Origin: Methanoregula sp.
GTDB lineage: Archaea > Halobacteriota > Methanomicrobia > Methanomicrobiales > Methanospirillaceae
Assembly (NCBI RefSeq): GCF_023227875.1
Contig: NZ_JALOCH010000013.1
Location: forward strand, 5,977 to 69,976
Length of the DNA: 64,000 bases
Direction: 5' to 3'
In this document: positions 8,063-63,022 of the stretch, one piece after another
Position numbering within the stretch: the first letter of the stretch is position 1
How the letters are laid out: each line of letters begins with the position of its first letter
Made by a program: the position numbers and the translations under genes
Notes under the pieces: model-generated
Told to the model about the DNA's origin: nothing
Database searches by the model: none
The model's input: the letters and a program-made list of their open reading frames with translations, nothing else

Positions 8063-8175
8063 GGTTCAGAAAAAACCTCACATACAATATTATTAAGGAT
8101 ATAACAGGAGCTAAACAATCTGATTGGATATCATTTAGTAATACTTTTATTTTATTATGTGATAACGAATAGTCC

Positions 8176-16283: not shown

Positions 16284-16598
16284 CTGTGGACAGAACAGTA
16301 CAATTGATAAGCGAGATTATTCTAAAACAGTTCGGCAAAATTTGTGATTATTAATTTCTAACGCGGTTATGATGGCGATCACTAACCTTTTTTTTTAGAG
16401 AATATCCCTTAATTCATCATGAACATGTAAAAATCTCGAATAGGTTCAGCATTTTTTTTGCAGGGAGAAGAGATCTTCCCCATGGAATTGAGGTACCGCG
16501 AACATGCCCTTTTCATTGTGCAAATAAAAATACGTAATAAACCGTAGCACTGATAAACATAAAGATAATACTCATGAGTATCCCGACGGAGTTTTTTA

Positions 16599-36043: not shown

Positions 36044-36466
36044 TTATTCATCGATAGAGATTGTCGTGAGTTTGACCGACTCGACACCCTTATGGGCCAT
36101 CAGTTTCTCGGCAAGAGCCTTGAGCTGTGAGCCGTCCCCGTGAACGAGGATAACTTCCAGGCACCGCTCATGGGTGACATGGGAGTGGAGCGAGGCCTTG
36201 ATAACCTCATGATAATCGTGCTCAATTTCAGTAATGGAAGAGAGAAGGTTGCGCTGCTCATGGTCGTATACCATCGTAATGACACCTTCCCGCGCCCCCT
36301 TGACATCCGACATCCACTTGTAATAGGTGATGTACGTACGGATCGCATCGCGTATGCCTTCCGACCGCGAGGAGTAGCCGCGGTAGTTCAGGATCTCATC
36401 AAACCGGTCGAGCAGGTTTTTCGGCAGCGATATGCCGATCCGGGATAGGTCGTCATCCATGGTCAT
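36044..36466 (-). CDS. nikR: Nickel-responsive regulator NikR (copy 1)
   Basis: RHH domain RIGISLPKNLLDRFD..SRSEGIRDAIR; Ni site H..HSH..C (LHSHVTHERCLEV). Confidence 0.95.
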   Translation of the reverse strand: MTMDDDLSRIGISLPKNLLDRFDEILNYRGYSSRSEGIRDAIRTYITYYKWMSDVKGAREGVITMVYDHEQRNLLSSITEIEHDYHEVIKASLHSHVTHERCLEVILVHGDGSQLKALAEKLMAHKGVESVKLTTISIDE

Positions 36467-36752
36467 GGTAATATCCGTTATGAGAATATCATTGCCGGGA
36501 GTTTTAATGTTTTTGAACAACGGGGAATCAGAGTGACACGAGATATGACGTTCATATGCCTGATAATTACCGGGGAAATACCAACCCGGGATGGCTCCCG
36601 CACCCGGGGTTAAAGAATGATCTCACACCACCATGATGGGGCAGATGCATCCCTGCCGGGGGTAGGGACAGCGCCATCCTGTTCCCATCTACCCTGTCCC
36701 ATTATCCTGCTGATGACGCGGGATCGCGCAACCGAAGGATTGTCATGTGCAG

Positions 36753-42371: not shown

Positions 42372-42398
42372 GTTCTACAAAAATAAAATAAATAATAC
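42372..42398. promoter_or_regulatory. Candidate NikR-type operator in the divergent cobN / chlD-like promoter
   Basis: GTTCTAC-N13-ATAATAC, 11/14 match to GTAwTAC-N13-GTAwTAC. Confidence 0.35.
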
Positions 42399-47309: not shown

Positions 47310-47732
47310 ATGACCATGGACGACGATCTCTCCCGTATTGGCATCTCATTGCCGAAAAACCTGCTCGACAAGTTTGATGAAATCCTGAACTATCGTGGCT
47401 ATTCCTCCCGTTCTGAAGGTATACGAGATGCGATCCGCACGTACATCTCGTATTACAAATGGATGTCGGATGTCAAAGGGGAGCGGGAGGGGGTCATCAC
47501 GATGGTGTACGACCATGAGCAGCGGAATCTTCTTTCTGATATTATGGATATCGAGCACAATTATCATGAAGTCATCAAGGCATCGCTCCACTCCCATATC
47601 ACCCATGAGCGGTGCCTGGAAGTTATCCTCGTTCACGGGGACGGCTCACAACTTAAGACCCTTGCCGAGAAACTGATGGCCCACAAGGGTATCGAGTCCG
47701 TGAAACTCACGACCATCGCTATTGAGGATTAG
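47310..47732 (+). CDS. nikR: Nickel-responsive regulator NikR (copy 2)
   Basis: Same motifs as copy 1; 13 of 140 residues differ. Confidence 0.95.
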   Translation: MTMDDDLSRIGISLPKNLLDKFDEILNYRGYSSRSEGIRDAIRTYISYYKWMSDVKGEREGVITMVYDHEQRNLLSDIMDIEHNYHEVIKASLHSHITHERCLEVILVHGDGSQLKTLAEKLMAHKGIESVKLTTIAIED

Positions 47733-47952: not shown

Positions 47953-50900
47953 TTACTTTTTCTTCAGCGTGAGGTTGACCTCATTGACCATATTGGGCTG
48001 GACCATGAATCCTTCATAGGTTGCCTTGGTCTGGTTCTGGACCACCTTGATCGTATATTCCCCAGCAGTCATGTACTGGAATACGTACGGTGTTTTCTTC
48101 CCGGTATCCTTGCCATTGATGTAGATCTTGCCTCCCGAAGGCGTGCTTGCGATGGAAAGCATGCCGTTCAGGTAGGGGTCGAGGACAAAGCGGCGAACCA
48201 GGTCCACACCGGTAATATGGACGGTGCTTTCAAGGGGATAATATCCCGGCTTCGAGACCCTGATGAGATGGTCCATATCCGACAGGTTCCTGACGAGATA
48301 AGGGGTGGTAAGACCCGTGGAAAACCCGTCCACATAGATGTCTGCCCCGGGGGGATCGGATTCCACCCACACGTTGTTGAGAGTATATCTTCGGGGTTCT
48401 ATCACGTTTTCGCTGGAATTGTCCGCGAAGATCGTGTAGGTGATATAGGAATCGTTTGCATGGAGCGTGACATAATTCTGCGATGATTGTACCGGGATGC
48501 TCTCTGCCATATGGTACTGGTGCGAATTCCCGTTTATCGTGAATACGGAACTGTTGAATGCTGTTGAATTGATCACAGGTCGTGCAAGGACAGGGTTCTC
48601 ATACGAAGTGATAGAGACCGGGGTGATGATCCCGTTAGCAACCCAGACTTCCTTCTTCTCGATGGGGAACTTGATCTTCTCCTGGTTTGCGGACGCCGTG
48701 GTACTGAGTTTTACCTGTACGGTATGTTTGCCTTCCTTGAGGCCGTAAATAATTCCCGGGGTGGTAAAGCCGGTCTTCTTCCCGTCAACATAAATGATGG
48801 CCTGGTCGGGGCTAGACGTTACATATACACCCCCGTATTTTTCCTGATCCAGGAATTCTTTTTCGGTGTCTGCAACCTTTTCCAACGATAACACGGAAGT
48901 TCCCCGTGTTGCCAGATCAAATGTTATCGTCTGGTTTGTGGTAAGAAAAATCCGTTCCTCTACGGGGTCAAAACCCGGCATATCAACGGACAGGGTATGG
49001 TTCCCGGCCGTAAGACCCGTGACGGTATCCGGTGTTGCCTTGCCGCGGTACTGGTAATCCACCGAGACGAGCGCCCCGGGGGGGTTGGAGAGGACGCGGA
49101 CCGCGTACGTCTTGCCGGACTGGTTGAGGACTTCCTCAATCGGACCGGTTGCCAGCAGGGCCGTGTTTGTCTGGTTCACGGTACTGGTGGGATCGGAAGT
49201 ATCCTCCTCAACATCGGCTTCACCCCCTCTGACCGTGGAACTGCTATTGACGGCAAATCCCCCTTCAATGGCTTTTTTCACCACGAGAATGAGGTTCCGG
49301 TTTTCCATGTAATCGCCTTTGGTCTCCCGGCCAATGCTCCCGATACCTGCGCTGTTACCGGAACGCAGGACATCCGTGCTCACGTTCAGCCGCGCAATGC
49401 TGATGCCGGAGGATCCGCCACTCAGCGGGTTCTGCCACTCACGGCCATTGAACATGACCCGGTTGTCATTCCCGGATGCAGCAGTGCTGATGGCGTACAG
49501 TTCTCCCTGAGATATCGAGGTCATATTGAGCGCGCCGGGGAAGGTGATACGTGTAACGGCATTTTCCGTATCAACGTTGAACTCGGGGTTTGCATAGACA
49601 GCGTCGGAACCTTCCCCGATCCAGTACTCGATATCCTGGCCATCCGGGTCCTCGGACACGACAAGGAGCGTGACACCGTACACAGCAAACTTGTCCGGCG
49701 TTTCCCCGGTATTGGTAATGGTAAACGACAGGTCTGGGTTCCCGGTCACGATCCCGTCAGGAAGGTAACAATGCGTCTCGACCGGGTAATCGTAGGTCCC
49801 GCTCCCTTTCCGGTCGGAATACGTCTGGTCCTTTGTCAGCTGTTCGCCATTCATGTCCACCGTGAGGGATGCAGGGGTCCCGGCGAGGGTATCGGCATTG
49901 TAACTCCATGTCGTATAGACATACAGCCGGGCTTCCTTTACCGATGCATTCGGGGTCAGGTTGAGCGTGAGCGGGTAGGTGGCGCTCATACCCTTGCCAA
50001 GCAGCCCGGAATATCCCCCGGAGTCCCTGAGGTCAAGGCTGCCGTGCGCGGATCCGTGCGTATGCATTGAGAGGGATTTCCCGGAATACCCCACCGCTTC
50101 CGTTGAATTGTCGTTCAGGACTGATGTGTTGCCCCCGGCTGCCTCAAGGATGAGATCGACGGACTCTGTCTGGTCCTCCTCAAGGCTGACGGTTGCAGTT
50201 GCGTTACTGAAACCGGGTTTTACGAGGTCGATTGTGTGATCGCCGATAATTACTCCCTCCAGGAGGGAGTCTGACTGGGCCGACATGTTTTTCCCGTCAA
50301 GGTATATCCACGCACCGTCGGGATCGGATGTGATGTCAATGGACCCGTTGATCTGGGGGATGGTGATGTTCACTATCGTGGTCTCCTTGTTCCTGACGTT
50401 GACGGTTACCGGATCAGGTTCACGGTATTTATCATTGTCCACGAGGATTACCTGCACGGTATGCTCCCCGATACTGATGCCGGGGAAGGTCTGGTTGGTT
50501 GTCTTGCCGGTCTCTTCGTCATCAAGCAGGATCTGTGCCCCCGCGGGGTTGGAGGTTATCTCCAGCGTACCTTCCGGCCGTTCCCTGAATGCAACGGTGA
50601 GGAGTGCGAGGGGCAGTTTGAAATATCCGCCTGCCCGTTCGTACTTCAGCGTGCTGTCATCTTCCAGATCGATCGAATCGGTGACCTCCCAGTCCACTGT
50701 GCCAAAATACTCTCCCTGAGGAGCACCGTTCCCGATAAGTTCGTCGCCATTGAAGGTGTAGGTCCCGTCCACGCTTGCCATGTACAGCGAGGAGAGGGTG
50801 GCCGTAAATTCCCGGTCTTCGCTTGCAACGATCTGGGACGTACCGAATTCGGTTTCCCCGGTATAGCCGTTATCGTTCAATGCGCTCATGGGGTCGTGGC

Positions 50901-51501
50901 CTTCGTTGACCCAGTAATAGATTTTGTCCCCATCGTCATCATTGTAGGCAACGACCAGCGCGATAAACTTGATCCTGTCGTCGAACGAGGGGTCGACTTT
51001 CTCGGTCTTGACACTGACACCTACCGTATTGCCGGATAACTGGTTCTTGATATCGTACGCGAAGACATAATCGCTGGTCACCCGGTTGCCATGCGCCAGG
51101 TATACCGGGCCGGTCCCGCCGTTCCCGGGGTAAGAGTACGGGACATTCAGTTCTTCGTTGGCAAGGAGAAAATCCCCTGTCCCGTCCCCGTTGGTGTCGA
51201 GGCTTATGGTCGCCTTCCCCTCGTAGTTGTTCTGCATGTGGCCGCAATATACCCCAACATACAGCCGTGCCCATTCGATCGTCGTATGCGGGGGCAGGGA
51301 GAAGGACTTGTATGCTGAGCTGTGGGGGAATCCCGGGTAGGAATCGTACCAGAGACCTCCCGAGACAACACCGGAACTTACGGTCCGGAGCGGGATGCCG
51401 CCCATGTATTCGTTTGCGCTGGCGATCGGGAAGAGTACAAGACTCGTAGCAAGTACGAGTGCTGCGGCAATGCAGATGCTGCGGCCAACGGGTTTTTTCA
51501 T
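47953..51501 (-). CDS. Large secreted surface protein: two DUF3344 domains plus six PEGA repeats
   Basis: Signal peptide MKKPVG..PIASA then NEYMGGIPL..GVVSGGLWY (DUF3344); six ITS.P.GA.I..DG..TG..TP repeats. Confidence 0.82.
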   Translation of the reverse strand: MKKPVGRSICIAAALVLATSLVLFPIASANEYMGGIPLRTVSSGVVSGGLWYDSYPGFPHSSAYKSFSLPPHTTIEWARLYVGVYCGHMQNNYEGKATISLDTNGDGTGDFLLANEELNVPYSYPGNGGTGPVYLAHGNRVTSDYVFAYDIKNQLSGNTVGVSVKTEKVDPSFDDRIKFIALVVAYNDDDGDKIYYWVNEGHDPMSALNDNGYTGETEFGTSQIVASEDREFTATLSSLYMASVDGTYTFNGDELIGNGAPQGEYFGTVDWEVTDSIDLEDDSTLKYERAGGYFKLPLALLTVAFRERPEGTLEITSNPAGAQILLDDEETGKTTNQTFPGISIGEHTVQVILVDNDKYREPDPVTVNVRNKETTIVNITIPQINGSIDITSDPDGAWIYLDGKNMSAQSDSLLEGVIIGDHTIDLVKPGFSNATATVSLEEDQTESVDLILEAAGGNTSVLNDNSTEAVGYSGKSLSMHTHGSAHGSLDLRDSGGYSGLLGKGMSATYPLTLNLTPNASVKEARLYVYTTWSYNADTLAGTPASLTVDMNGEQLTKDQTYSDRKGSGTYDYPVETHCYLPDGIVTGNPDLSFTITNTGETPDKFAVYGVTLLVVSEDPDGQDIEYWIGEGSDAVYANPEFNVDTENAVTRITFPGALNMTSISQGELYAISTAASGNDNRVMFNGREWQNPLSGGSSGISIARLNVSTDVLRSGNSAGIGSIGRETKGDYMENRNLILVVKKAIEGGFAVNSSSTVRGGEADVEEDTSDPTSTVNQTNTALLATGPIEEVLNQSGKTYAVRVLSNPPGALVSVDYQYRGKATPDTVTGLTAGNHTLSVDMPGFDPVEERIFLTTNQTITFDLATRGTSVLSLEKVADTEKEFLDQEKYGGVYVTSSPDQAIIYVDGKKTGFTTPGIIYGLKEGKHTVQVKLSTTASANQEKIKFPIEKKEVWVANGIITPVSITSYENPVLARPVINSTAFNSSVFTINGNSHQYHMAESIPVQSSQNYVTLHANDSYITYTIFADNSSENVIEPRRYTLNNVWVESDPPGADIYVDGFSTGLTTPYLVRNLSDMDHLIRVSKPGYYPLESTVHITGVDLVRRFVLDPYLNGMLSIASTPSGGKIYINGKDTGKKTPYVFQYMTAGEYTIKVVQNQTKATYEGFMVQPNMVNEVNLTLKKK

Positions 51502-51739
51502 TGAGAGAAACCTGCCCGCCGCCATGAGGGGAATACATGTACTTCGCACTATTGACAGGATTGTTGTAATGCAGGAACCGTGGCGAGAGGCGATCATAAC
51601 GGACAGTTATTTATTTGCTATTATTAAAAATTTTATTGAGTTTCATTATAATTCGTATGAATTTTTTTAAAAATATTCTTACCTTGGCCGGACCTGTTCG
51701 CAGTCCCCCGTTAAGAACCATCGTTGTGCCTTTGGGAAA

Positions 51740-52861
51740 TTATCCGGGTTGCGGATAGAATACGGGAGTCATATTGGTCCCCGCCACAAACCGGCCGGCA
51801 TACTCATCCTGAATTGCCGATGGCTGGATATCGCGATACCCCTCCGGGTTGAGAATTCCTGCAAGGTAGGCAAGCCCGACAACCGAGCGGGGCCCATACA
51901 TGACACTGCCCAACATCACGTACACCTTGTTGTTCCTGACTGCACGGGTGTCTGAAATACCCGTCCGGGCGACAAGTTTGTCCCGGATCTCCCGGAGCTC
52001 CGTCTCGTTCTTTCCCGCTGCAGCAACTTTCACGATCACATCCGGGTCCTGGGCCGCAACCCATTCTGCATTGACCTTGGGTGAAGAGACCGGGAGCATG
52101 CCGGCGATATTACTGCCTCCGGCCATGGTGACCAGCAGGTCGCCCCCGCTTCCCATGGTCAGGGCAGAATAATCGGAGTATGATTCAATGTATACGCGGT
52201 TGGTTTCACCGGAGGTCCGGTCCACTGTGCGGGACTGCACGAGTGACTCATACTGTTCAAGGAACGAGATATACGCCTCTGCCCCATCCTCCCTGCCGGT
52301 CAGGTTCCCCAGCCGACGGGCATCGGACGCAAGCGTATCGATCTTGTAACAGTCAATGAGGAGGAGGGGGATGCCGGCCGATGTGATCTGATCGGTATTC
52401 TTGGGTGTATAACTCGAATAGCTGATCACCGCATCGGGGTGGAGCGAGAGGATCGTCTCAATATTGGGGGTCTGCCATGAGCCGATACTCTCTTTTCCGG
52501 CAAAGCGTGGGCCGAGTACAGGATGGTTCTTTACCGTATCAGATATGCCGACAACCTGGTCCCCTGCCCCGATGGCCAGGAGGAGTTCCGCTGCATCGGC
52601 ATTGGTGACGATGATGCGCTGCAGGGGGGTGCCGGGCGTTTGCGGGGTAACCGTAGTTGTGACCGGCAGGGTGGCAGACAATGCCGGGGTTATGGGCGAG
52701 GACAGGGAGGGGGGGGGTGCTGTTGCCGGTGTGGCTGATGCTTCCCTGCCGGACACGCATCCGGATACTGCACATGCAGCAATTATCAGGAGTATGAGGA
52801 GACACGCGGACAGGGCACCGGTTTGATGCGATAATTCTGATGGGGTATTTTTTTTCTTCAT
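51740..52861 (-). CDS. BtuF/FecB-like ABC substrate-binding lipoprotein
   Basis: VSGC lipobox, Pro/Thr linker, QRIIVTNADAAELL, PNIETILSLHPDAVI, AVRNNKVY. Confidence 0.9.
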   Translation of the reverse strand: MKKKNTPSELSHQTGALSACLLILLIIAACAVSGCVSGREASATPATAPPPSLSSPITPALSATLPVTTTVTPQTPGTPLQRIIVTNADAAELLLAIGAGDQVVGISDTVKNHPVLGPRFAGKESIGSWQTPNIETILSLHPDAVISYSSYTPKNTDQITSAGIPLLLIDCYKIDTLASDARRLGNLTGREDGAEAYISFLEQYESLVQSRTVDRTSGETNRVYIESYSDYSALTMGSGGDLLVTMAGGSNIAGMLPVSSPKVNAEWVAAQDPDVIVKVAAAGKNETELREIRDKLVARTGISDTRAVRNNKVYVMLGSVMYGPRSVVGLAYLAGILNPEGYRDIQPSAIQDEYAGRFVAGTNMTPVFYPQPG

Positions 52862-52934
52862 AATAACTCAGTCCTTTTCATGAGGGGGCGGATTCACGTT
52901 TTCGGAGAGCGCGTGCCCCGTGCATTCACGGGCA

Positions 52935-54149
52935 TCACGTATGCCGGATCGCCTCCACCGGATTCAGCCGTGCTGCCTGCAGGGCCGGGTAGATGCCGGA
53001 TACCAGTGAAAGGATGACGGCAACGAGAAATCCTGATAGCAGGATCTCCGGAGTGACCAGCGCAAGGTCATAGCGGGCGAATGCAGAGAAGAGCTCCCCG
53101 GTCTGGGAGATCAGGTACGCCTTTCCCGCGGTATTGATCACGTAGGAGAAAAGTATCCCAAGCAGATCTCCGAGCACCCCGCCTATCATGCCGATATACA
53201 GGCACTCGATCAGGATCAGGGTGACCACATCGCGCTGCGAGGCCCCGAGTGCCATGCTCACCCCGATTTCGCGCGTCCGTTCGTACACCGACATGACCAT
53301 CGTATTGACGATCATGAGGGCCCCGACAACGAGCGAGATCGCCGCAAAGATCGAGAGGAAGAGGATGACAAGATCCATGAAACGGTTGACGGTCTCGATC
53401 TGGCGGAATGCGCCGTTTGCGGTAAGACCGAGAGACTGGATCCCGCCTGCCACCGTGAGGACATTCTCCGGGTTGTCAACGCGTACATACACCGCGTTGT
53501 AGGGAACTGATTCATTGGACAGGGCGTGGATGGTATCCCGGTCCATGATGAGCAGGGAATCGAGCTGATCCTCCCTTTCGCGGAGCGTGCCGCCGGACCG
53601 GATTGCCAGTTTCCGGTCGGACGGGGCGCCATTCGGCGCATAGTCCCGGATGATGGCCGTGAAGAGATCGCCCTGCCGGATGCCTTCGTATTTCTGCAGT
53701 TTTTCGGCAAGTTCGTGCCCGATGACGACTTGGTTAGAACCGGCCGGATACAGGTCCCCTGCAGAAAATACCGGCGTGAACAGGACCCGCAGGTCCTCCG
53801 CGCTGATTCCCAGTACGTCGATATACGTCTGGTGCAGCGTGGAGAACGAGACCCGGTACACCGGCCCTGCGGCTTCAACATGGGGTATCTCCCTGATCAG
53901 GGAGACCTTGGATTCCGTGATGGGAATGACCGTCTCGTCCCTGACGGACCCGGTGACTTCGATAAGCGTGAGGTCCGACTGCTCTTTTATAGTCTCGATG
54001 GCCTGGTGGCGGATCCCCTCCCCGAACGAGACCATTCCCACTACGGCGGCAATGCCAATCGCTATCCCGAATGCGGTCAGGAACACACGCATCCGTTTTT
54101 TCAATACCTGGCGTGCAGAGAGCCGGGCAAAATCGGCCAGTTTTTTCAT
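52935..54149 (-). CDS. MacB/FtsX-family ABC permease
   Basis: RVFLTAFGIAIGIAAVV, extracytoplasmic domain, NTMVMSVYERTREIGVSMALGA, YPALQAARLNPVEAIR. Confidence 0.92.
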   Translation of the reverse strand: MKKLADFARLSARQVLKKRMRVFLTAFGIAIGIAAVVGMVSFGEGIRHQAIETIKEQSDLTLIEVTGSVRDETVIPITESKVSLIREIPHVEAAGPVYRVSFSTLHQTYIDVLGISAEDLRVLFTPVFSAGDLYPAGSNQVVIGHELAEKLQKYEGIRQGDLFTAIIRDYAPNGAPSDRKLAIRSGGTLREREDQLDSLLIMDRDTIHALSNESVPYNAVYVRVDNPENVLTVAGGIQSLGLTANGAFRQIETVNRFMDLVILFLSIFAAISLVVGALMIVNTMVMSVYERTREIGVSMALGASQRDVVTLILIECLYIGMIGGVLGDLLGILFSYVINTAGKAYLISQTGELFSAFARYDLALVTPEILLSGFLVAVILSLVSGIYPALQAARLNPVEAIRHT

Positions 54150-54814
54150 GTGCCGGTCACCTTCCCGTCAATGAGCCGGAACGACCGGTCCGCGTACTCC
54201 CCGAACTCCCGTTCGTGGGTGACCATGAAGAACGTGGTCTTCCGCACCCTGCTGATTTCCTGCATCAGGCTGAAGATATCAGCACTTGTTTTCTGGTCCA
54301 GGTTGCCGGTGGGTTCGTCGGCAAAAATGATGGGGGGGTTGCTGACGAGCGCCCGGGCGATTGCCACCCGCTGCTGTTCGCCGCCCGAGAGCTCGGCCGG
54401 GTGGTGGTGTTTCCGGTCGCCAAGGCCGAGGCTCGTGAGCAGTTCCCCGGCAGTGTGTGCCCGTATCTTCGGCTCATGGTAATTGAAGAGCATCGGGTAC
54501 TCGACATTCTCCTGTGCCGTGAGATGTGGCAGGAGGTTGAACTGCTGGAAGACAAACCCGATCTTCTGCCGCCGTATCGATACGAGCTGTGACGGGTCCC
54601 TGAAGTTCACGGGTACGCCGTCAAGGACAAGCGAGCCTGATGTGGGAGTGTCGAGACAGCCGAGGATGTTCAGGAGGGTGCTCTTGCCGGACCCGCTCCT
54701 CCCGATCAGGGTGACGAACTCTCCTTTTTCAATGGTAAAACTTGCTTCGGCAAGGGCAGGGACCCCGCCCCGGTATACTTTGCTCAACCGGTCCACTTCA
54801 ATGGTAGCAGGCAT
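54146..54814 (-). CDS. LolD/MacB-type ABC ATP-binding protein
   Basis: GRSGSGKST, GFVFQQFNL, LSGGEQQRVAIARAL, DEPTGNLD, VTHE. Confidence 0.93.
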   Translation of the reverse strand: MPATIEVDRLSKVYRGGVPALAEASFTIEKGEFVTLIGRSGSGKSTLLNILGCLDTPTSGSLVLDGVPVNFRDPSQLVSIRRQKIGFVFQQFNLLPHLTAQENVEYPMLFNYHEPKIRAHTAGELLTSLGLGDRKHHHPAELSGGEQQRVAIARALVSNPPIIFADEPTGNLDQKTSADIFSLMQEISRVRKTTFFMVTHEREFGEYADRSFRLIDGKVTGT

Positions 54815-54823
54815 GAGTCCACC

Positions 54824-55813
54824 TCACCGGAATACAATATGCAGTACAACGTTCGTCAGGAGCAGGTAATCCCCCCGGTCCTGGACGGCCACGGTATTCG
54901 ATCGCGGTGCCATGTACGCGGTGACGTCCCGCGTCTCGATACCGATCTGCTGCTGCTGGTCGGAGTCAAAGACATCCACCCACTCCTTTCCGTTCGCGTA
55001 GGGAAAGACGAGCCCGAGGATCACCGAAAGAAATTTCGGAAGATCGGAGTCCTGCTGGTGATTGAAGTACAGGGCATTTTTCCGGATAACATCCGAGCGC
55101 GTATATCCCCCGGAAGGTGCAACGAGTTCGAGGGTTGCAGACTTCATCCTGGCGGTGTCGATCTCCCGGTTGAAATCCACGCTGCTCGTTGCCATCTCCG
55201 GGGTGATGCCATAGCTGTAGTAGAGCATGTCGCAGCCTTCCTTTACAAGAATAAGGCCTTCCGGCTCCGAAGCGCTGCTGTACACGGCAAGGAGGCCGAT
55301 CCCCTGGATCACGAACGTGCTGTTGCTCTCTGCAGTATTGGCAACCCCGAAGGTGACCGTACTGGTCCCGGGGGGGAGTGGGGCCCCGGAGAAGGCATCC
55401 ACCCCGGAATAGAAATCACTCGGGCTTGAGAACCCCTTGTTGTCGGTATACCGTACAACCGGTTCGGCACTGGTCCCGTAAGCGGGACTGCTGATGGCGG
55501 CGATGGAGGGGTACACGGACTGCTCGTCCCTGCGGCTCCATGCCCAGTAGACATAATACCGCTGGTACTGGACGACCGCATCGTCCGGGAGGGTGACGGT
55601 AAATTCTACCGGGTACTGGTCGCCGGGTAGAAGCGTACCGCTGTACGTACTGTTGCCGGTCGAGAACGCGTACCCGCACTTCCCTTCGCAGGTATATGCA
55701 TCAAAGAGCGGCTTGTCGCCGGCATAGGTTGCAAGGACCGGGACGGCAAGGAGTGCAGCGCAGAGCAGGGCCATCACCGTCCTAGCCCGGGAAATCATAG
55801 CGGCCCTGCGCAA
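54824..55813 (-). CDS. Secreted DUF3344-domain protein
   Basis: Signal peptide then TYAGDKPL; YVYWAWS, YTDNKGF, LLAVY, EGCDML. Confidence 0.75.
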   Translation of the reverse strand: MRRAAMISRARTVMALLCAALLAVPVLATYAGDKPLFDAYTCEGKCGYAFSTGNSTYSGTLLPGDQYPVEFTVTLPDDAVVQYQRYYVYWAWSRRDEQSVYPSIAAISSPAYGTSAEPVVRYTDNKGFSSPSDFYSGVDAFSGAPLPPGTSTVTFGVANTAESNSTFVIQGIGLLAVYSSASEPEGLILVKEGCDMLYYSYGITPEMATSSVDFNREIDTARMKSATLELVAPSGGYTRSDVIRKNALYFNHQQDSDLPKFLSVILGLVFPYANGKEWVDVFDSDQQQQIGIETRDVTAYMAPRSNTVAVQDRGDYLLLTNVVLHIVFR

Positions 55814-57596
55814 TGTTATTGTTCCGGTTGCTGTCCTTTATGATCCCTGCTTCGTCTGCAACGACCTTCAGTTCATGGGTGCCCGGGGCGATGAAGACCG
55901 GGATCGCGATATCCGCCGTTGCATGTGCCGCGAGGCCCGCCTCGATCTGCTTATCGGCGATCTTCTCGCCGTCGAGATAGACGCTCACGGTGAAAGCCGG
56001 GGCATGGCTTCCCCCGTTGTTGGTGATCGTGAGGGGGAGGGTGTACTCAAGAGTGACCGTGTCTGCCCCGGCCGACACGATGATGCCGGGCACGACCAGC
56101 AGGACTGCAAGGAGAAGCATTGCTGCCGGAATGGTTGACGGGGGCCTCTTCCTGCTGAACCGCATGAGGAGGAGCACGCCGACGGCCCCGCATACCGTGA
56201 GGACCGACAGCGGGGACTTTGTGACGGTTACAGCAGCCTCCCCTTTGTGCACGGGAGATCCGATGCTTACGGAGAGATCGGGGGGGGTCCCGACCGTCAG
56301 CGGGAGCGAGGCCGCGTTGTTATCGGTCTTGGAATCTGCCGGCGCTGCCACACTGGCGGAAACGGTATGGCTTCCCGCTTCCGCAACCCAGGGTACCTGC
56401 ACGACGGTGATGCCACTCGCCGGGATCGTTGCCTGGGTCGTATTCATGGTTTTACCGTCAATCGCAAACGTGACCGGTACGGGTCCTGCCGGCTGATTCC
56501 CGTAACTCCGGATCTCTGCAACAAGGACCGCATTTTCTCCCGCAAAGGCGTTCTCTGCACGGATGCTTTCCGTTGCAAGGTCTGTCACCGGACTGCTGCC
56601 GGGTCTTGTGACGGTAAGGATCGCCATGACAGGGTGTATGTAATCCTCTCCCTCCGGGGCATCACCGGTGGTTACAATGGACCCGTCACCGTCAAGGTCG
56701 AAACCCCGGATGAAGCGTGCGGTGCTGGTCTCCTTCACAAGAGATGTGACTTCGAAGACTTCCATGTCGGCATACCGCGAGGGAATCCCGGTACCCCCAC
56801 CGGCATCGAATGATATCTCGTCGCCGATGTCCGTGACATTCCTGCCGGACATGTTCCGGATCGGCACCCCGAGGTACTGCCCGTTGAACTGCACGTAATC
56901 CGGCTGGCCTTTTCCCCCGGCAAGGAGGAGGACCGAGAGGTTGGCCCGGGTCACACCGGTTAATCCTGCACTGGTGAAGGTGACGTTCGTATCCTCGTGC
57001 TTTGTCGGGTTGGTCCCGGCCCAGCCTTCGCCATGGAGGTTCTCGTTGCCTTCCGCTATCCAGTACTGTGTCTGTTCCCCGGATTCCGGATCATCCACTA
57101 CGGCAGCAACAAGGATCGCGTATACCCTGCCGTCCAGTTTGTTGCCGGGATCGGTCTTGCTTGTATTGACCGTGATGAGGTTGTCACCCCGTGTGAGAAG
57201 ATCCGTCGGGTCGTATGCGATCCAGTAGATGCCGTGACCCGATTCATAGAGATCGCGGTTCTGGTCCCGGTCGCCGTTGAGGAGATACCTCGCTTTCTTT
57301 TTATTATTGATGGTGATGTCCGCCCAGCCGGTATATTTTTCCGTGCCCCCCCAGATGCCGGTGTAGACCCGGGCATACCGGGGCACGGACGGGAGGGTGA
57401 ACTTGAGTTCGTACGGTGGTTTGTCGAGGCCGTATTCCCCGAACATGAGGACGTCGCCGGTTACGGTCCCCTGTGCGGTTACAGTGAGAGGAATGCCTTC
57501 GAAATCGTAGAGAGCTGATACCGGGTACATCACGATACCCAGTGCCAACAAGGACAGGAGAAGAGAGACAGACGTTAATCGTACCATGTATACCAT
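55782..57596 (-). CDS. Secreted DUF3344 plus CARDB protein with an internal membrane hairpin
   Basis: Signal peptide then LYDFEGIPL..GTVTGD; ARVYTGIWGG; DGRVYAI; CARDB-like DLATESI.. and TITNNGG..FTVSVYLDG..HELKVVAD..E..NN. Confidence 0.8.
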   Translation of the reverse strand: MVYMVRLTSVSLLLSLLALGIVMYPVSALYDFEGIPLTVTAQGTVTGDVLMFGEYGLDKPPYELKFTLPSVPRYARVYTGIWGGTEKYTGWADITINNKKKARYLLNGDRDQNRDLYESGHGIYWIAYDPTDLLTRGDNLITVNTSKTDPGNKLDGRVYAILVAAVVDDPESGEQTQYWIAEGNENLHGEGWAGTNPTKHEDTNVTFTSAGLTGVTRANLSVLLLAGGKGQPDYVQFNGQYLGVPIRNMSGRNVTDIGDEISFDAGGGTGIPSRYADMEVFEVTSLVKETSTARFIRGFDLDGDGSIVTTGDAPEGEDYIHPVMAILTVTRPGSSPVTDLATESIRAENAFAGENAVLVAEIRSYGNQPAGPVPVTFAIDGKTMNTTQATIPASGITVVQVPWVAEAGSHTVSASVAAPADSKTDNNAASLPLTVGTPPDLSVSIGSPVHKGEAAVTVTKSPLSVLTVCGAVGVLLLMRFSRKRPPSTIPAAMLLLAVLLVVPGIIVSAGADTVTLEYTLPLTITNNGGSHAPAFTVSVYLDGEKIADKQIEAGLAAHATADIAIPVFIAPGTHELKVVADEAGIIKDSNRNNNIAQGRYDFPG

Positions 57597-57667
57597 CCCG
57601 GAAAAGATTCAGATTCAATATACCTGCTATAATAATTCAGATAAAGATTGTTATTTTGTTGTGATAA

Positions 57668-57694
57668 GTGATATTATTTTAATTTTCGTAATAC
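57668..57694. promoter_or_regulatory. Candidate NikR-type operator upstream of the DUF3344 operon
   Basis: GTGATAT-N13-GTAATAC (12/14). Confidence 0.4.
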
Positions 57695-57707
57695 CGGTAC
57701 TTCAGGA

Positions 57708-58589
57708 TCAGGATTCTTCTGCTCCCGTGGCCAAAGAAAGTACTGCATCCTTGCGCTCCCCTGCCACCTGCCGGTCAGTATAATCGTAATGGGAGATTTT
57801 TTCGATGATTACATAGAACATGTCCCTGTGCCGGTGATTATACCGGAAGGCCAGTTCCTGTACAAAATCAGGGATCTGTGCGCGTTCCAGATACCGGTGA
57901 CGGGACCAGAGGGTCTGGGCAAAACGCCAGAATACCGTAAGCGGCGGCCAGGTTCCCCGGTTTTTTGGTGTGAGGATGACGGTTTCCTGGTTGCAGCGAT
58001 CCGGATAATAGGCAATGAGGCCATGATACTGCTTCTCGCAGGCATCGATGAAGAGGACGGTACTGCGGATCGACCACGGAATCTCCATCTGGATGATTAT
58101 ATCCGGGAAGGGTGTCTCATATCGCTCGATCTCAATAACCTCGGCATGAATGCGGATACCGAAGACGACCGGATCCAATCGCGATGCAGTAGGGTGCTGC
58201 AGAATGTTTCCAGCAATTGAAAGACCAGGTCCCGGTACGGCCGGCCCATCAATGATCGCAAGGCGGATCCGCCGGTAGATCCTGTTCACCATCGCACGCT
58301 CCATGTGCAGCTGCGCGACCGCTTCATCCGGGGGAATGTCATCGGCAAACATCCTGATTATGCGGATGAACTGCAGGTAGGTGATTTGCGTGTTCTCAAT
58401 AATACTTCCCCTTCGGAGACCCCAGGTAAAGCCACAGTCGCTGCACCTGCTCCGGCCCCGGCTTACGGATACCACCCGGGTACTGCCGCACAGGGTGCAG
58501 GGCTGAACGGCCCGGAGGATTCCGGCACCTATCAGGAACTTCTTTGCAGCGGATTCATTGCGTATCAGGTTCTCATTGATGACACTCAT
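57708..58589 (-). CDS. IS1595-family transposase-derived protein with degenerate catalytic motifs
   Basis: Zn ribbon CTLC..RCSDC, HTH (AVAQLHMERAMVNRIYRRIR), C-terminal FW..A....QELAFRYNHR; no recognisable DExY/NGIE motifs. Confidence 0.65.
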   Translation of the reverse strand: MSVINENLIRNESAAKKFLIGAGILRAVQPCTLCGSTRVVSVSRGRSRCSDCGFTWGLRRGSIIENTQITYLQFIRIIRMFADDIPPDEAVAQLHMERAMVNRIYRRIRLAIIDGPAVPGPGLSIAGNILQHPTASRLDPVVFGIRIHAEVIEIERYETPFPDIIIQMEIPWSIRSTVLFIDACEKQYHGLIAYYPDRCNQETVILTPKNRGTWPPLTVFWRFAQTLWSRHRYLERAQIPDFVQELAFRYNHRHRDMFYVIIEKISHYDYTDRQVAGERKDAVLSLATGAEES

Positions 58590-58653
58590 TTTATCATCCC
58601 GTTCCAAGGATTTGATTTATTAATAATAAATTATCAGTAATTTTTTCCATTAC

Positions 58654-58680
58654 GTAATACTTTTTTAAAAAAAGTATTAC
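58654..58680. promoter_or_regulatory. Perfect inverted-repeat operator (NikR-like)
   Basis: GTAATAC-TTTTTTAAAAAAA-GTATTAC, 65 bp upstream of the 58589 start. Confidence 0.65.
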
Positions 58681-59419
58681 ATTCTATTTATAAATTTTGA
58701 AACTGCCCGGGCCCGTGAACTGTGATATCCCCGGTTACCAAGATTGCACGCAACCTCTCCAAAGGGTTCACCGTAGTGCGGGAATGTGCCGGGGATTAAA
58801 CGCCCTGCGCTGATGAGCGTTTTATTCAATTCCAATAAGGAGTGTCACACAATATGGTTCAATTAATAATACGGAATCAATTTGGATATTCACTGTGTTA
58901 ACAACCTGCTATGAAAATAATACTATACTATTAATAATGTGCAAAAACGGGTTGTGAATAATTATGTACAGTATTTACAGAGATTATCATGCACTCTGAA
59001 TTTACACATTACTTATTAGTGCAATTTTCAAAAGGCGCACCGATCCCAGGCATCAGAAACGCCCGGCAATTGCAGGTAACCGGGGCTCAATTATCCAGGG
59101 GCGCATACCGCGTATGAAAAATCTACGGCTCATGAAACCGGGGCCGCCATCGGTATTGCAGGGAATAATTCCGGTAACCGGATCACGTGCAATCGCCCCC
59201 CAGCCCGATCGGGCTTTTGACTTGGGCCGCACGGATCCCTGCGGCCGGCACCGGGATTTCAGGATCTATATTCCGGAATCAGGATTCGCTACCCCCACAG
59301 CCATGGGGGGAATATCGTAGCCGGCGGCAGATTTCATTTCATTCTCATCTGGCTGCTGCTTTGCGATTACGATGCTGGCGATGCCGGTTCGTTGGCAGGG
59401 ATTTGTTAGGGTCCGTTGA

Positions 59420-59648
59420 TCATATCCGAAGCAACCGGAGATAATCTTCCCGTGTCATCCCAACGGTTTTCATATTATTAAGAATTATTGTGACCGGGAC
59501 TTCATCGTAACGGGGTATCACAACTGCCCGTTTGGCAGCCGGGTGATGGTAGATCAGATGATCGCCGCTCTGGCGGACGAATGTGCATCCCGATTTTTCA
59601 AATATCCTGACTTGAGTTTTCCAGTCAGTGGGGGATATTTTTTTTCAT
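59420..59648 (-). pseudogene. hicA: HicA toxin with a +1 frameshift in an A8 run just after ATG
   Basis: ATG-A8-TATCCCCC; with A7 it reads MKKISPTDWKTQVRIFEKSGCTFVRQSGDHLIYHHPAAKRAVVIPRYDEVPVTIILNNMKTVGMTREDYLRLLRI*, including the HicA G(D/S)H motif. Confidence 0.75.
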
Positions 59649-59724
59649 CGGGCATCACAGGGAAATGTATCAGAAAAATGAACCGGAACGGATCCTCATT
59701 TCCAGCAGGAGGTTTTTATGGGCA

Positions 59725-60003
59725 CTACAATACGGGAATCGGGATCCGGATCTCTTCGAAACATACGATTTTTTTGCCGGTCTTTATGACATCGCCATCC
59801 CGGATATACCCGGATTCGCTGAGCAGATCGTCAAGTGTCCCCAGTTTTGCGATCTCTTCCAGCTGGATCGTGATGACTTCCGCTAAATTCTTACGCGCTT
59901 CCTCTTGCGTGTGACCGCAGCTGGCGATATCGAGTTCCGGGCAGTATGAAGTATACATGCCTCCCTCCTTCCAGATTTCAGCAGTAGTGATGAGATCCCG
60001 CAT
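59725..60003 (-). CDS. hicB: HicB-family antitoxin
   Basis: EGGMYTSYCPELDIASCGHTQEEARKNLAEVI. Confidence 0.87.
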   Translation of the reverse strand: MRDLITTAEIWKEGGMYTSYCPELDIASCGHTQEEARKNLAEVITIQLEEIAKLGTLDDLLSESGYIRDGDVIKTGKKIVCFEEIRIPIPVL

Positions 60004-60437
60004 ACGTTTTCCGCCCCTATCCACTTGTATATCCGTACCTGTTAATGAGGTATGTGGTGACCGTTTTTGTGTAACGAATCTTTCAATGAAATGAGGTTGC
60101 GGAAAAAAACCGCAGGATTCATTGATGGAGTTTTAAGTCGTCATGTCTGTGCCGTGCTCTTCCGCACTGACGGCAAACGCGATCAGAATCCGGGAACGCT
60201 TCTTTCCTGATAATATCTACAATTCCTTGACCGGTTTTCCCCAATCACTATTTCCTTGCCTGGCACACACGTTCCCGTGTCGCCAGCAGGGGACGCGATC
60301 CTGCGCGCTTTCCGGCTCTTCCAGGTATTGTTTTCGGAGGGGCACGGATGCGCTCGCCCAGATAAAATCTGTGCGAAAAAAAAACGGCATACCTTTTACA
60401 GGGATCCTTGCAGCCGGGATATCCCGACGATGTAAGA

Positions 60438-60911
60438 TCAGTTCTTTTTCAGAATGCCATCCCTGAATTTTTCAAGGGGCATAGTATCCGGTTTGAAAAA
60501 TCCGGCATTTTCCAGGACTGCGGGAACCCGGTACCTGATCAGGTTCTTGTCGGAGGTCAGGAAATAATCAGAAGCATATGCCATCGCATATGCCAGATGA
60601 GTACGATCCGTGGGTTCCCGGATCATCCTGCTGTCGATCTCCACTTCCCCCATCTGGTAACATAGGATTCTTACATAGTCATTCGGGAAATGAATCGCGA
60701 CATTCCAGTCATCAAGTGCCTGATTCAGGTACGTGATATAATCTATCGCATTCGAATGTTCATGCATCTGGGCAAGTGCCTCGCCAAGAACCGAGATGGA
60801 CGTCCTGATCTGGTAATCCATGTTCAATGCATGTTCCAGAATGGTCGCGGTCTGGGGGGATTCGATACCCTGAAAGAATATTGTAGTATCAAGAAAAAGA
60901 GAAGCTTTCAT
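60438..60911 (-). CDS. PIN-domain (VapC-like) protein
   Basis: LFLDTT, VLGEA, TDRTHLAYA, FLTSDKNL: four acidic PIN positions. Confidence 0.82.
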   Translation of the reverse strand: MKASLFLDTTIFFQGIESPQTATILEHALNMDYQIRTSISVLGEALAQMHEHSNAIDYITYLNQALDDWNVAIHFPNDYVRILCYQMGEVEIDSRMIREPTDRTHLAYAMAYASDYFLTSDKNLIRYRVPAVLENAGFFKPDTMPLEKFRDGILKKN

Positions 60912-61069
60912 GGGGTGATAGCTTTGAGCCGCTTCATTGTTTCGCGGTATTCCGCCTCATCAATCGCAGATGAGATCTTTCCCCGGGTAACCGCACCGCC
61001 ATAGGGGAGCATCCCTCTCTGGTAGGGTTTCCCGATTACCTCTTCCGGTTTGAATTTTTTCGCTGGCAT
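60908..61069 (-). CDS. Small 53-aa putative antitoxin coupled to the PIN gene (not in the ORF track)
   Basis: MPAKKFKPEEVIGKPYQRGMLPYGGAVTRGKISSAIDEAEYRETMKRLKAITP*; ATGA overlap with the PIN start. Confidence 0.65.
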   Translation of the reverse strand: MPAKKFKPEEVIGKPYQRGMLPYGGAVTRGKISSAIDEAEYRETMKRLKAITP

Positions 61070-61129
61070 TTTTGAGAACTCCTGTACTATCGGATTGGTA
61101 TGGTGAATCTGATAATGGTTGTGTTGGAT

Positions 61130-61300
61130 TCACTCAATAGAGGCTATCTCCCCTTTTAGGAGGACATCGGCAAAATAGTAAATGTGGATATTGGTATCAA
61201 AGAGGTACCGTTTCACGTCCGTTCCCATTCCTGCCGCAGGCACATTAGTTCACGCTCGAAATCCAGTTCAAGATTGCGATAAATTCCGGAAGACTTTTAG
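61130..61300 (-). pseudogene. Remnant vapBC pair
   Basis: Antitoxin-like tail GIYRNLELDFERELMCLRQEWERT* overlaps the PIN N-terminus KRYLFDTNIHIYY, which stops after 32 aa. Confidence 0.5.
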
Positions 61301-61545
61301 GATATGGAGTTATAACAGGGGGCCTCCTGTACCCGGGCAATGAAAAATGATGATATCGCTTCAAAATTGAAAAAAACTAAACGATTATACGCGATTCTCT
61401 TTTATAAGGCGCTCCATTATCCCGCTGCCAACCGTATTGAAATCCTTCCAAACGCCAGTCCTTCCGTTCTTTGATAGTATCCCCGCTTCCCTTGCGTATA
61501 ACTCTGGATGAACCGGACCTTGAGTCTGCACGGCCGAACGCCTCG

Positions 61546-61965
61546 CTATTCCGTACTGATCCTATCGTACACTATTCGTGCCGATTCCACGACGATTCCG
61601 GCAGACTCTGCATTATAGATGCAACCATAATCGGCACCTTCCCTGAGATCCATGGCAAAGGAAAAATGATCCAGTACATCCGGCCCGAGTTCCCCCTCAT
61701 CGACCAGCAGTGCCTCGACTGCATGCCTGAGGCACCGGTGGCTCTTTTCGCGGTAACCTTTCGCAAATATCCGGGATCTCAACGAGTGGAAGAGTGAATA
61801 ATATCCCTGAATGATTGCCCACTTCACCTGGTTTTGGCCAAGCGAATGTTCAGCCGCCACGAGATCCGCCGCTGCTTCCTCGCGTTCTTTTTCTACCAGC
61901 GCGGGATCGACCGGGATTTTTACGATCTTTCCCCGTTCGAGACATTCCTCAAACCGGTACCTCAC
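61546..61965 (-). CDS. HEPN-domain protein (MNT-HEPN pair)
   Basis: ADLVAAE..AIIQGYYSLFHSLR..YREKSHRCL..LREGADY. Confidence 0.87.
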   Translation of the reverse strand: MRYRFEECLERGKIVKIPVDPALVEKEREEAAADLVAAEHSLGQNQVKWAIIQGYYSLFHSLRSRIFAKGYREKSHRCLRHAVEALLVDEGELGPDVLDHFSFAMDLREGADYGCIYNAESAGIVVESARIVYDRISTE

Positions 61966-62507
61966 AGCATCTCACCTGCAAGAAGTTTTCCTGTGCGTAT
62001 CCTTTCGAAGAACGGGCGGTCGCGGGTCCGGAGCTGCTGTGCCTCATCTGGGGATACGAGAACCGGAGAGATTTTCCGGGAAATGGTGTCACCACACCGT
62101 GAGATGAGGTCGGATACTTCCGGCCGGTTGGCAGTTTCGATATAGAGATCGATATCGCTGTCGGCGGTATCTTCTCCGGTAGCGCAACTCCCGAACAGGA
62201 TCATCCGTATAACGAGTCCCTTTCCGGCAGCGATGAGGGGGGAAAGTTCTATCAGGGTTGCAAGGATCTTTGATTCCCGTACGACCGGATGGGCGATATC
62301 TGCCCGGAACAGGAGCGTTCTCCCTTTCCGTTCGCTTGTTACGAGACCGTATTCTTCCAGTACCCGGAGATACCCGCTCGCAGCACCGGTACTCAACGGA
62401 AGGATCCTGGCGATCTCGCGAACATAATACGAGTTGCGGTAATTCCGGCCAAGAAACGTGAGAATTACAAAAGAAGGGGTTTCCAAGATGTTCATTTTTT
62501 TGAACAT
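61962..62507 (-). CDS. Winged-helix plus minimal nucleotidyltransferase (MntA-type antitoxin)
   Basis: YYVREIARIL..ASGYLRVLEEYGLV; ILFGSCATGEDTADSDIDLYIE. Confidence 0.87.
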   Translation of the reverse strand: MFKKMNILETPSFVILTFLGRNYRNSYYVREIARILPLSTGAASGYLRVLEEYGLVTSERKGRTLLFRADIAHPVVRESKILATLIELSPLIAAGKGLVIRMILFGSCATGEDTADSDIDLYIETANRPEVSDLISRCGDTISRKISPVLVSPDEAQQLRTRDRPFFERIRTGKLLAGEML

Positions 62508-62525
62508 ATGTTCATTATTATGAAC
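62490..62525. promoter_or_regulatory. Tandem palindromic operator at the MNT-HEPN start
   Basis: GTTCA-N6-TGAAC twice (62490-62505 and 62510-62525). Confidence 0.5.
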
Positions 62526-62867
62526 GATATTATTTAGCAGTTATGATGCATCCTTAGGGAGAACGCTCCGGTAAGGCACCAGATGAGATTATTCATTTCG
62601 ATACACTATGTGATCATCACCGGTTCCACCCGGCGCGGAAAACCCGCGAGCCGGGCATAGTGCCGGTACCTGTTGGTGTTGTATAATGTACATTCTATGG
62701 TGCATTGCAGAAGGGTATACTGTACTTCCTATTCATCTGAAAAAATCCCGCGCTGATGATAGTACAATGCGGTATATCACTGGAAGATACCACGGATTGT
62801 ATACAAATTTACCTATTGCATAAGACGATCCATATACTGCACCGCCCATACCGTTCTCCCCGGCCAA

Positions 62868-62894
62868 GTATTACCAAAAAAAAAATCGTAAAAT
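62868..62894. promoter_or_regulatory. Candidate NikR-type operator upstream of the terminal DUF3344 gene
   Basis: GTATTAC-N13-GTAAAAT (12/14). Confidence 0.35.
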
Positions 62895-63022
62895 CAAATG
62901 CTACAAATTTTTAAAAACGTATTAATAGATCTTACGCAAATGAGATCGTGTTCGCAACCGGTTCAGCTGATGATTATGCACGCATATCCGTTGCCGGTCC
63001 CGCGAGCAAGGAGAATCTCTCA

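Follow-up and report, generated by a model that had tools for sequence, protein, structure and literature searches.

The 64,000-nucleotide window analysed here (Methanoregula sp., RefSeq assembly GCF_023227875.1, contig NZ_JALOCH010000013.1, positions 5,977 to 69,976 of the forward strand) contains, directly upstream of an operon for DUF3344 proteins and an ATP-binding cassette (ABC) system, a gene for which the working name tnpX is used (57708..58589, minus strand). This gene is very probably a domesticated transposase of the IS1595 family. It is a single-copy gene at a fixed position, it is maintained by purifying selection, and it lies behind a conserved palindrome that resembles the operators of NikR. 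The explanation as a whole, in which domesticated tnpX is repressed by NikR and its product serves as a second-tier regulator, is given a slightly better than even chance of being correct.

The tnpX gene and its homology to IS1595 transposases

The gene and its recognizable parts are as follows.
57708..58589, minus strand: tnpX, catalytically degenerate homologue of IS1595-family transposases (homologue starts and hhalign)
58434..58499, minus strand: zinc ribbon, C37-x2-C40 ... C55-x2-C58 (invariant cysteines and Pfam)
58254..58379, minus strand: three-helix, helix-turn-helix (HTH)-like region, residues 77-118 (AlphaFold2 model)
58182..58244, minus strand: variable disordered linker at the position of the first catalytic Asp (hhalign, model confidence and a dN/dS of 0.35-0.92)
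57792..58169, minus strand: remnant RNase-H-like domain and C-terminal helices (alignment, hhalign and AlphaFold2)

The minus strand carries a 299-codon open frame that begins with TTG (57708..58607). The ATG at 58589, which gives a protein of 293 amino acids, is preferred as the start because 15 of 15 close homologues begin at the M7 position; all residue numbers refer to the 299-residue frame. Each of the 16 close homologues has an intact frame, as do more distant homologues, and the GC content of the gene (0.55 overall and 0.64 at third codon positions) falls within the host range. In addition, one 218-nucleotide contig from a wastewater run labelled as metagenomic RNA-seq lies inside tnpX at ~93% identity, which hints that a relative of the gene is transcribed.

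Homology to the IS1595 family is secure on the basis of profile comparison. By hhalign, a profile built from the close family (A1, 16 members) was aligned with one built from seven relatives that mostly retain the E.DE.yFGG and NG.EGFW motifs (A3), giving a probability of 100% and an E-value of 6.3e-40 over 264 columns that span the region of the DDE (Asp-Asp-Glu) domain. An exhaustive phmmer search with TnpX yielded 182 relatives; among the 112 that were scanned, Zn_ribbon_IS1595 was matched by 77, DDE_Tnp_IS1595 by 46 and HTH_23 by 10. TnpX itself matched Zn_ribbon_IS1595 weakly (E 0.006; 16.9 bits, cut-off 25.4), and no match was found to DDE_Tnp_IS1595 in Pfam or to any model in NCBIfam. 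The zinc ribbon is nevertheless identifiable from its four cysteines and from the coverage of this region in the hhalign match, and C37, C40, C55 and C58 are the sole invariant columns across the 112 relatives.

The AlphaFold2 model of TnpX (mean predicted local distance difference test score, pLDDT, 72.9) places in order the zinc ribbon, three helices (77-88, 93-100 and 104-118; pLDDT 82-94), a disordered segment (122-142), and a domain of five strands and four helices. The C-terminal FW..EL.FRYNHR block is retained. An intact reading frame, a Zn ribbon, an HTH and an IS1595-like C terminus had all been read from the sequence in a preliminary description of this region, and the invariant cysteines, the modelled helices at 77-118 and the FW..EL.FRYNHR block agree with that reading. 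A sequence-profile search of the PDB with TnpX was uninformative.

Loss of the catalytic residues

In the hhalign alignment, the E.DE.yfGG motif with the first catalytic Asp falls on a variable linker, GPGLSIAGNILQH, which has zero conserved columns in A1, and residues 122-142 are disordered in the model (pLDDT <50). Judged from alignment and model together, the strand expected to bear the first Asp is now a linker. The second Asp is retained as D188 (in FID) and is invariant in the close family. NG.EGFW has become PPLTVFW, with P221 in place of the Asn and T224 in place of the Glu according to hhalign, and the Lys seven residues past the Glu is replaced by Q231; T224 and Q231 occur throughout the close family. 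Thus, of a D-D-E(/N/H) triad with K/R at +7, only D188 is present in TnpX. The protein is predicted to be catalytically inactive, the argument being the joint loss of the first Asp, the Glu and the Lys, together with the genomic evidence given below.

The preliminary description had stated that the catalytic motifs were replaced and had suggested a mapping of D-D-E; the mapping onto relatives that still carry DDE revealed no intact triad. Replacement holds for the linker and for PPLTVFW. The proposal that VVFGI had taken the place of EIDE fails, as VVFGI corresponds to the conserved 'vFGi' strand after the motif.

The loss of these residues is not confined to tnpX. The triad is missing in most of 126 aligned relatives, and most of the relatives P0026-P0165 miss at least one DDE residue yet retain the zinc ribbon and the EL.FRYN.R block. 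The DDE-poor relatives include proteins from Ignavibacteriales, Melioribacteraceae, Desulfuromonadales, Azoarcus and Binatia metagenome-assembled genomes (MAGs), as well as loci L018-L020. A large clade of DDE-less IS1595-like proteins may therefore exist across Bacteria and Archaea.

Conserved position, selection and origin

As the preliminary description had observed, tnpX is co-oriented with the DUF3344 operon; the two are separated by 111 bp. It stands directly ahead of the same operon at loci whose TnpX proteins share 88% (L007), 77% (L001), 69% (L006), 60% (L002 and L003) and 42% (L010 and L011) identity with it, and the contig of P0010 (59% identity) has the same order as judged solely by its gene table. 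Wherever a homologous contig includes sufficient flanking sequence, tnpX is found ahead of the DUF3344 cluster. In L008 (42%) and L012 (36%) the order is rearranged, and the tnpX homologue still adjoins DUF3344 genes. The other side of tnpX is variable, with differing toxin-antitoxin modules followed by a divergent DUF3344 gene.

Pairwise ratios of nonsynonymous to synonymous substitution rates (dN/dS), calculated by the Nei-Gojobori (NG86) method for pairs with unsaturated dS, range from 0.16 to 0.33 for tnpX. The synteny and the dN/dS below 1 that had been proposed as a check on domestication were thus both observed. By segment, the zinc ribbon and helical part (residues 1-112) gave ~0.09-0.25, mostly 0.09-0.16, the remnant RNase-H-like domain gave 0.09-0.20 in unsaturated pairs, and the linker was nearly neutral (0.35-0.92). 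Because of these segment-wise values, it can be concluded at the level of sequence that both structured domains of TnpX are maintained and that the former first-Asp region drifts.

The operon is found beyond the range of tnpX. Homologues of the 324-residue DUF3344 protein occur across Methanomicrobiales, and the operon is present without tnpX in Methanoculleus palmolei (L048), Methanoplanus limicola (L049) and a Methanolinea MAG (L050). The core promoter block of the operon, which is invariant in tnpX-bearing genomes, was located as follows.
57630..57657, minus strand: DUF3344 operon core promoter block AAAATAACAATCTTTATCTGAATTATTA
Its ATCTGA core is recognizable in Methanoculleus and Methanoplanus, which lack tnpX. 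The tnpX-less operons and the retained promoter core fit the insertion of an insertion sequence upstream of a pre-existing promoter, followed by fixation; tnpX would accordingly be a lineage-specific insertion that was later fixed. Conserved position, absence in outgroups and purifying selection, by which domestication was judged, were all found.

At the tnpX-less loci, the region upstream of the operon is shared with a divergent binding-protein/FecCD/ABC/CobN-like cassette or with CbiM/CbiN genes, a pairing that connects the surface system of DUF3344 proteins with the uptake of nickel or chelates.

Mobility and copy number

IS1595 elements are characterized by terminal inverted repeats (TIRs) and 8-bp target-site duplications (TSDs) (PMC8101967), and the ends of IS1595/Merlin elements have been described as beginning with GG. 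A scan for inverted repeats between 57300 and 59100 found short AT-rich or intragenic pairs only and no plausible TIRs flanking tnpX, in agreement with the earlier statement that none had been found. Neither tblastn nor blastn detected a second copy in the 64-kb window. When one genome per species was scanned with a sequence pattern, each Methanoregula MAG with a match gave a single locus, and each homologue cluster was encountered on just 1-2 contigs.

Two candidates for element ends were rejected. The inverted pair 57672-57683 / 58911-58922 (12 nucleotides, AT-rich) belongs to a set of 40 similar pairs within 1.8 kb and was judged a chance occurrence. The palindromic boxes described below were also considered as relic TIRs; their likeness is confined to the heptamer, and the same class of box is found without tnpX.

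With no TIRs, a single copy in the window and a fixed site, and lacking the hallmarks both of an active enzyme and of a mobile element, tnpX should not be classed as an insertion sequence. The earlier claim of a transposase-derived gene that is no longer mobile is therefore upheld by the catalytic loss, the missing TIRs, the single copy per contig or MAG, the synteny and the low dN/dS.

NikR-type boxes at tnpX and across the nickel island

The boxes, promoter elements and nikR genes considered here are listed below; where no strand is given, the feature was recorded without one.
58654..58680: box 1, GTAATAC-N13-GTATTAC, 65 bp upstream of the tnpX ATG
57668..57694: box 2, GTGATAT-N13-GTAATAC, between the tnpX stop codon and the DUF3344 operon
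62868..62925, plus strand: boxes 3a (GTATTAC-N13-GTAAAAT) and 3b (ATGCTAC-N14-GTATTAA), upstream of the divergent DUF3344 gene
62868 and 62898: positions at which the half-site score places the boxes of the divergent DUF3344 gene
58842: box found by half-site score, intergenic
8138-8165: box preceding an operon of methyltransferase, FecCD, ABC and binding-protein genes
16544-16571: box preceding an ABC-2 exporter
42372-42398: box in the promoter of a CobN-like chelatase gene
58685..58694, minus strand: TATA-like element TTTATAAATA, read from the sequence, AT-rich and conserved in alignment A4
58615..58635, minus strand: another AT-rich block conserved in alignment A4, GATAATTTATTATTAATAAAT, downstream of box 1 and before the ATG
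47310..47732, plus strand: nikR paralogue by the end of the cluster (Pfam RHH_1 and NikR_C, E ~1e-29)
36044-36520, minus strand: second nikR

The operator-like palindrome that had been noticed 65 bp upstream of tnpX lies at 58654-58680; its two 13-nucleotide arms, on either side of one central nucleotide, are perfect inverted copies of each other (13+1+13). For GTANNAC-N13-GTANNAC, 0.02 occurrences would be expected in a window. Box 1 is conserved at the corresponding position in L001, L002-L004, L005 (42% identity), L006, L007 and L014-L017, and none of the orthologous upstream regions lacks it, while the DNA around it has diverged. Box 2 is conserved in L001, L006, L007, L014 and L015, and boxes 3a and 3b are invariant in L001, L002 and L003 and present in L010.

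Predicted NikR signals have the form GTGTTAC-[N13/14]-GTAACAC, or in reverse GTAACAC-N13-GTGTTAC (PMC545781), and box 1 agrees with the reversed signal at 6 of 7 positions per half-site. With the known operators (GTATGAT-N13/14-ATCATAC in E. coli; GTGTTAC-N13/14-GTAACAC in delta-proteobacteria), box 1 shares the layout of 27-28 bp with 7-bp half-sites and a spacer of 13-14 bp. It differs from the reversed delta-proteobacterial signal in the central half-site base (GTAATAC instead of GTAACAC). Several of the local boxes, unlike the NikR consensus, have one degenerate half, and binding by the Methanoregula NikR is a prediction.

Boxes like box 1 precede five other transcription units of the nickel island. 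When scored by half-sites, boxes with an AT-rich spacer were found in intergenic DNA only; there were 8, compared with 0.55 expected from dinucleotide shuffles of intergenic DNA, a number reached by 0 of 300 shuffles under a scoring rule that was framed after sites 1 and 2 had been seen. Taken together, the boxes are predicted to outline a NikR regulon across the island. A conserved NikR-type operator, the presence of nikR and boxes at other nickel-related operons were all found, so that the nickel-regulon membership of tnpX suggested earlier holds as a prediction, in an island with two nikR genes.

When metagenomes were scanned for GTAACAC-W13-GTGTTAC, 27 loci were returned, whose neighbours include nikR, cbiM, DUF4198 and a CobN-like gene; no relative of tnpX was found at any of the 27. 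Weaker box-like sites also occur at the tnpX-less loci of Methanoculleus and Methanoplanus. Because this class of box matches NikR signals and recurs without tnpX, box 1 is most simply read as a NikR operator rather than an operator of TnpX itself, and this reading is considered quite probable.

Box 1 follows the TATA-like element TTTATAAATA at a distance of 4 bp. Were this element the promoter, box 1 would cover the region of the transcription start, and binding there would block initiation. The block GATAATTTATTATTAATAAAT could be an alternative TATA box or B recognition element.

The metagenome contig L045 (Ga0068714_10002190) has a perfect GTAACAC-W13-GTGTTAC box 9 bp upstream of a CobN/Mg-chelatase-like gene, which would link NikR-type control independently to CobN-like genes of anaerobes.

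Possible roles of TnpX and alternative explanations

The following scenario is proposed. In an ancestral genome of the Methanoregula-type lineage, an IS1595-type element would have inserted just in front of the promoter of a DUF3344/ABC operon that was already there. Its ends and catalytic centre would then have been lost, and the remaining gene would have been passed on by vertical descent as a single-copy host gene. The parts kept under purifying selection are the zinc ribbon, the helices of the DNA-binding region and, at the C terminus, the basic helices with EL.FRYNHR. Ni-NikR would repress tnpX, the downstream operon and the divergent DUF3344 gene, and a shortage of nickel would allow their expression, a prediction based on the NikR-type box that precedes each of these three units. 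TnpX would then act as a non-catalytic, sequence-specific DNA binder, either as a second-tier regulator or as an architectural factor for the DUF3344 cluster. Such a role is suggested by its constrained DNA-binding parts, its lasting position beside DUF3344 genes and its own NikR-type box. That TnpX is a non-catalytic DNA-binding regulator of the cluster, made at low nickel, is put forward tentatively and with somewhat less than even confidence. It is rather doubtful that TnpX represents the first described archaeal host transcription factor derived from a DDE (IS1595) transposase, derepressed through NikR and controlling the DUF3344/ABC system.

Several observations weigh against this scenario. 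A Foldseek comparison of the AlphaFold2 model with the PDB gave weak zinc-ribbon matches (eL43/L37Ae) only and left the C-terminal domain unmatched. Some genuine IS1595 subgroups are reported to have Asn or His in place of the Glu (ISfinder; Siguier 2009), so that loss of the Glu alone would not prove TnpX inactive. The box scoring rule, as mentioned, was framed after two of the sites were known. Moreover, a search of the three promoters for shared 9-mers (at most 1 mismatch) found the GTATTAC half-site as the sole common motif. This implies that a motif of TnpX itself is invisible to such a search, that TnpX uses the same boxes, or that it is not a regulator there.

An alternative explanation is that TnpX is functional but not a transcription factor of the cluster, acting instead as an inhibitor of IS1595 elements, as an architectural or nucleoid protein, or as a nucleic-acid binder with other targets, and tnpX would lie where it does simply because the element happened to insert there. 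Purifying selection demonstrates a function without telling which one, no TnpX motif of its own is evident in the promoters, and the operon exists without tnpX in other genera, all of which would suit this view. However, inertia alone is hard to credit when the DUF3344 association persists in the rearranged L008 and L012 (36-42% identity), and the NikR-type box on the tnpX promoter couples the gene to the signal of the cluster. Such a role outside cluster control is regarded as unlikely.

Another alternative is that the boxes are operators of TnpX itself, perhaps derived from the ends of the insertion sequence, so that TnpX would autoregulate and directly regulate the DUF3344 units; the likeness to NikR boxes would then be coincidental, or both proteins would compete for the same sites. 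The boxes do lie on both sides of tnpX (58654-58680 and 57668-57694) and at the divergent DUF3344 promoter, their half-site is the one motif common to the three promoters, and TnpX is the sole conserved DNA-binding candidate within the cluster. Against this, the 7-N13/14-7 arrangement, with half-sites two turns apart, is a hallmark of NikR and 6 of 7 positions match in each half-site. Similar boxes occur far from tnpX (8138, 16544 and 42372), the consensus boxes in metagenomes adjoin nikR and nickel transporter genes without a tnpX homologue, and the weaker sites in Methanoculleus and Methanoplanus are at loci that lack tnpX. In addition, the flanks of the boxes share nothing past the heptamer, and IS1595/Merlin ends start with GG. 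Control by NikR is therefore still preferred, and TnpX-specific operators appear quite improbable.

It is very improbable that tnpX is a decaying relic, open by chance or kept for its promoter DNA. The loss of catalytic residues would be expected of a relic, but the reading frames of the 16 close and the more distant homologues are intact, dN/dS is 0.09-0.25 in both structured domains, and the operon keeps its own ancestral promoter downstream of tnpX. A working or recently inactivated insertion sequence with non-canonical residues, for which the invariant D188, the reported IS1595 subgroups whose third residue is not Glu and the annotation of relatives as 'transposase' in their sources could be cited, is already largely refuted by the lack of TIRs, of an extra copy in the window and of more than one match per MAG, by an orthologous position fixed across species at dS up to >1, and by the disordered variable linker in place of the first-Asp strand, and it has scarcely any probability left.

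Relationship to known systems

TnpX shares its protein architecture (an N-terminal CxxC..CxxC zinc ribbon, a helical region, an RNase-H-like domain and the C-terminal FW...EL.FRYNHR block) with IS1595 sequences of the ISPna2, ISH4, IS1016, IS1595, ISSod11, ISNwi1 and ISNha5 groups, from which it differs in the loss of the first Asp, the Glu and the Lys, in the absence of TIRs and TSDs, and in being a single-copy gene at a fixed site under purifying selection. Exapted transposon proteins of prokaryotes include TldR (nuclease-dead TnpB repressors), RAYTs (relatives of the IS200/IS605 TnpA) and Cas1, which derives from casposases, and transposase-derived inhibitors are represented by InsA of IS1 and the Tn5 inhibitor protein. 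Like TnpX, these are nucleic-acid-binding proteins of transposons that were recruited to a host function or to regulation, often with loss of catalysis. Unlike TnpX, they belong to other superfamilies (TnpB/RuvC, HUH and Cas1) or still reside within their element.

In eukaryotes, transcription factors derived from transposases are known (FHY3/FAR1, from Mutator-like elements), and domestications of Merlin/IS1595 proteins have been proposed in protists (PMC6000157, PMC8101967). TnpX resembles these cases in that a DDE transposase keeps its DNA-binding part, is immobile and is under selection; it differs in its archaeal host and in that its role as a regulator is deduced. The domestication of transposases into regulators is a textbook theme for eukaryotes, whereas well-supported DDE cases in prokaryotes are rare, and a literature search found no IS1595-type DDE derivative described as a prokaryotic host gene. 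tnpX may thus provide a clean and testable example, for which the distribution among related genera, the constant gene order, the selection on each domain and the positions of the lost catalytic residues have been worked out. Moreover, the DUF3344/MacB-type ABC system would gain two regulatory handles, namely the predicted control by NikR and a dedicated DNA-binding protein, and it would be tied to the acquisition of nickel or chelates by methanogens, in which the core enzymes need nickel.

Surrounding genes

The cluster downstream of tnpX comprises six genes (47953..57596, minus strand), which were assigned with Pfam.
55782-57596, minus strand: DUF3344 and CARDB
54824-55813, minus strand: DUF3344
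54146-54814, minus strand: ABC ATPase
52935-54149, minus strand: MacB/FtsX permease
51740-52861, minus strand: Peripla_BP_2 binding protein
47953-51597, minus strand: DUF3344/PEGA protein of 1214 amino acids
The order of the six genes is identical in L001, L002, L003, L006, L007, L010 and L011. A literature search on DUF3344 found almost nothing described.

Upstream of tnpX, ~1 kb without a convincing open frame is followed by PIN, HEPN and HTH-nucleotidyltransferase genes, and the divergent DUF3344 gene starts at ~62948. Searches against Rfam (57400-60200 and the whole window) and a tRNA scan gave no match, so that the palindrome and the ORF-free kilobase do not correspond to a known RNA.

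The set of toxin-antitoxin genes in 58681-62900 and its counterparts (L001, L002, L006, L010 and L012) differs from genome to genome and includes PIN/VapB, HEPN/nucleotidyltransferase, ParE-like and HepT-like types. This stretch, bounded by tnpX and the divergent DUF3344 gene, is apparently a hotspot of toxin-antitoxin modules. Within it, a stretch of 234 bp (59428-59661) is 86% identical to L010:6735-6968, though the TnpX protein of L010 is just 42% identical, which points to a small element, mobile or under strong conservation, lying between these toxin-antitoxin genes.

Finally, a region of 230 bp upstream of the divergent DUF3344 gene (62780-63020), in which a long 5' leader is probably included, shows 81% identity between genomes with TnpX proteins just 60-77% identical, and it thereby exceeds the conservation of coding DNA. 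The region matches no Rfam family; it may contain several stacked operators or an RNA element in the leader.

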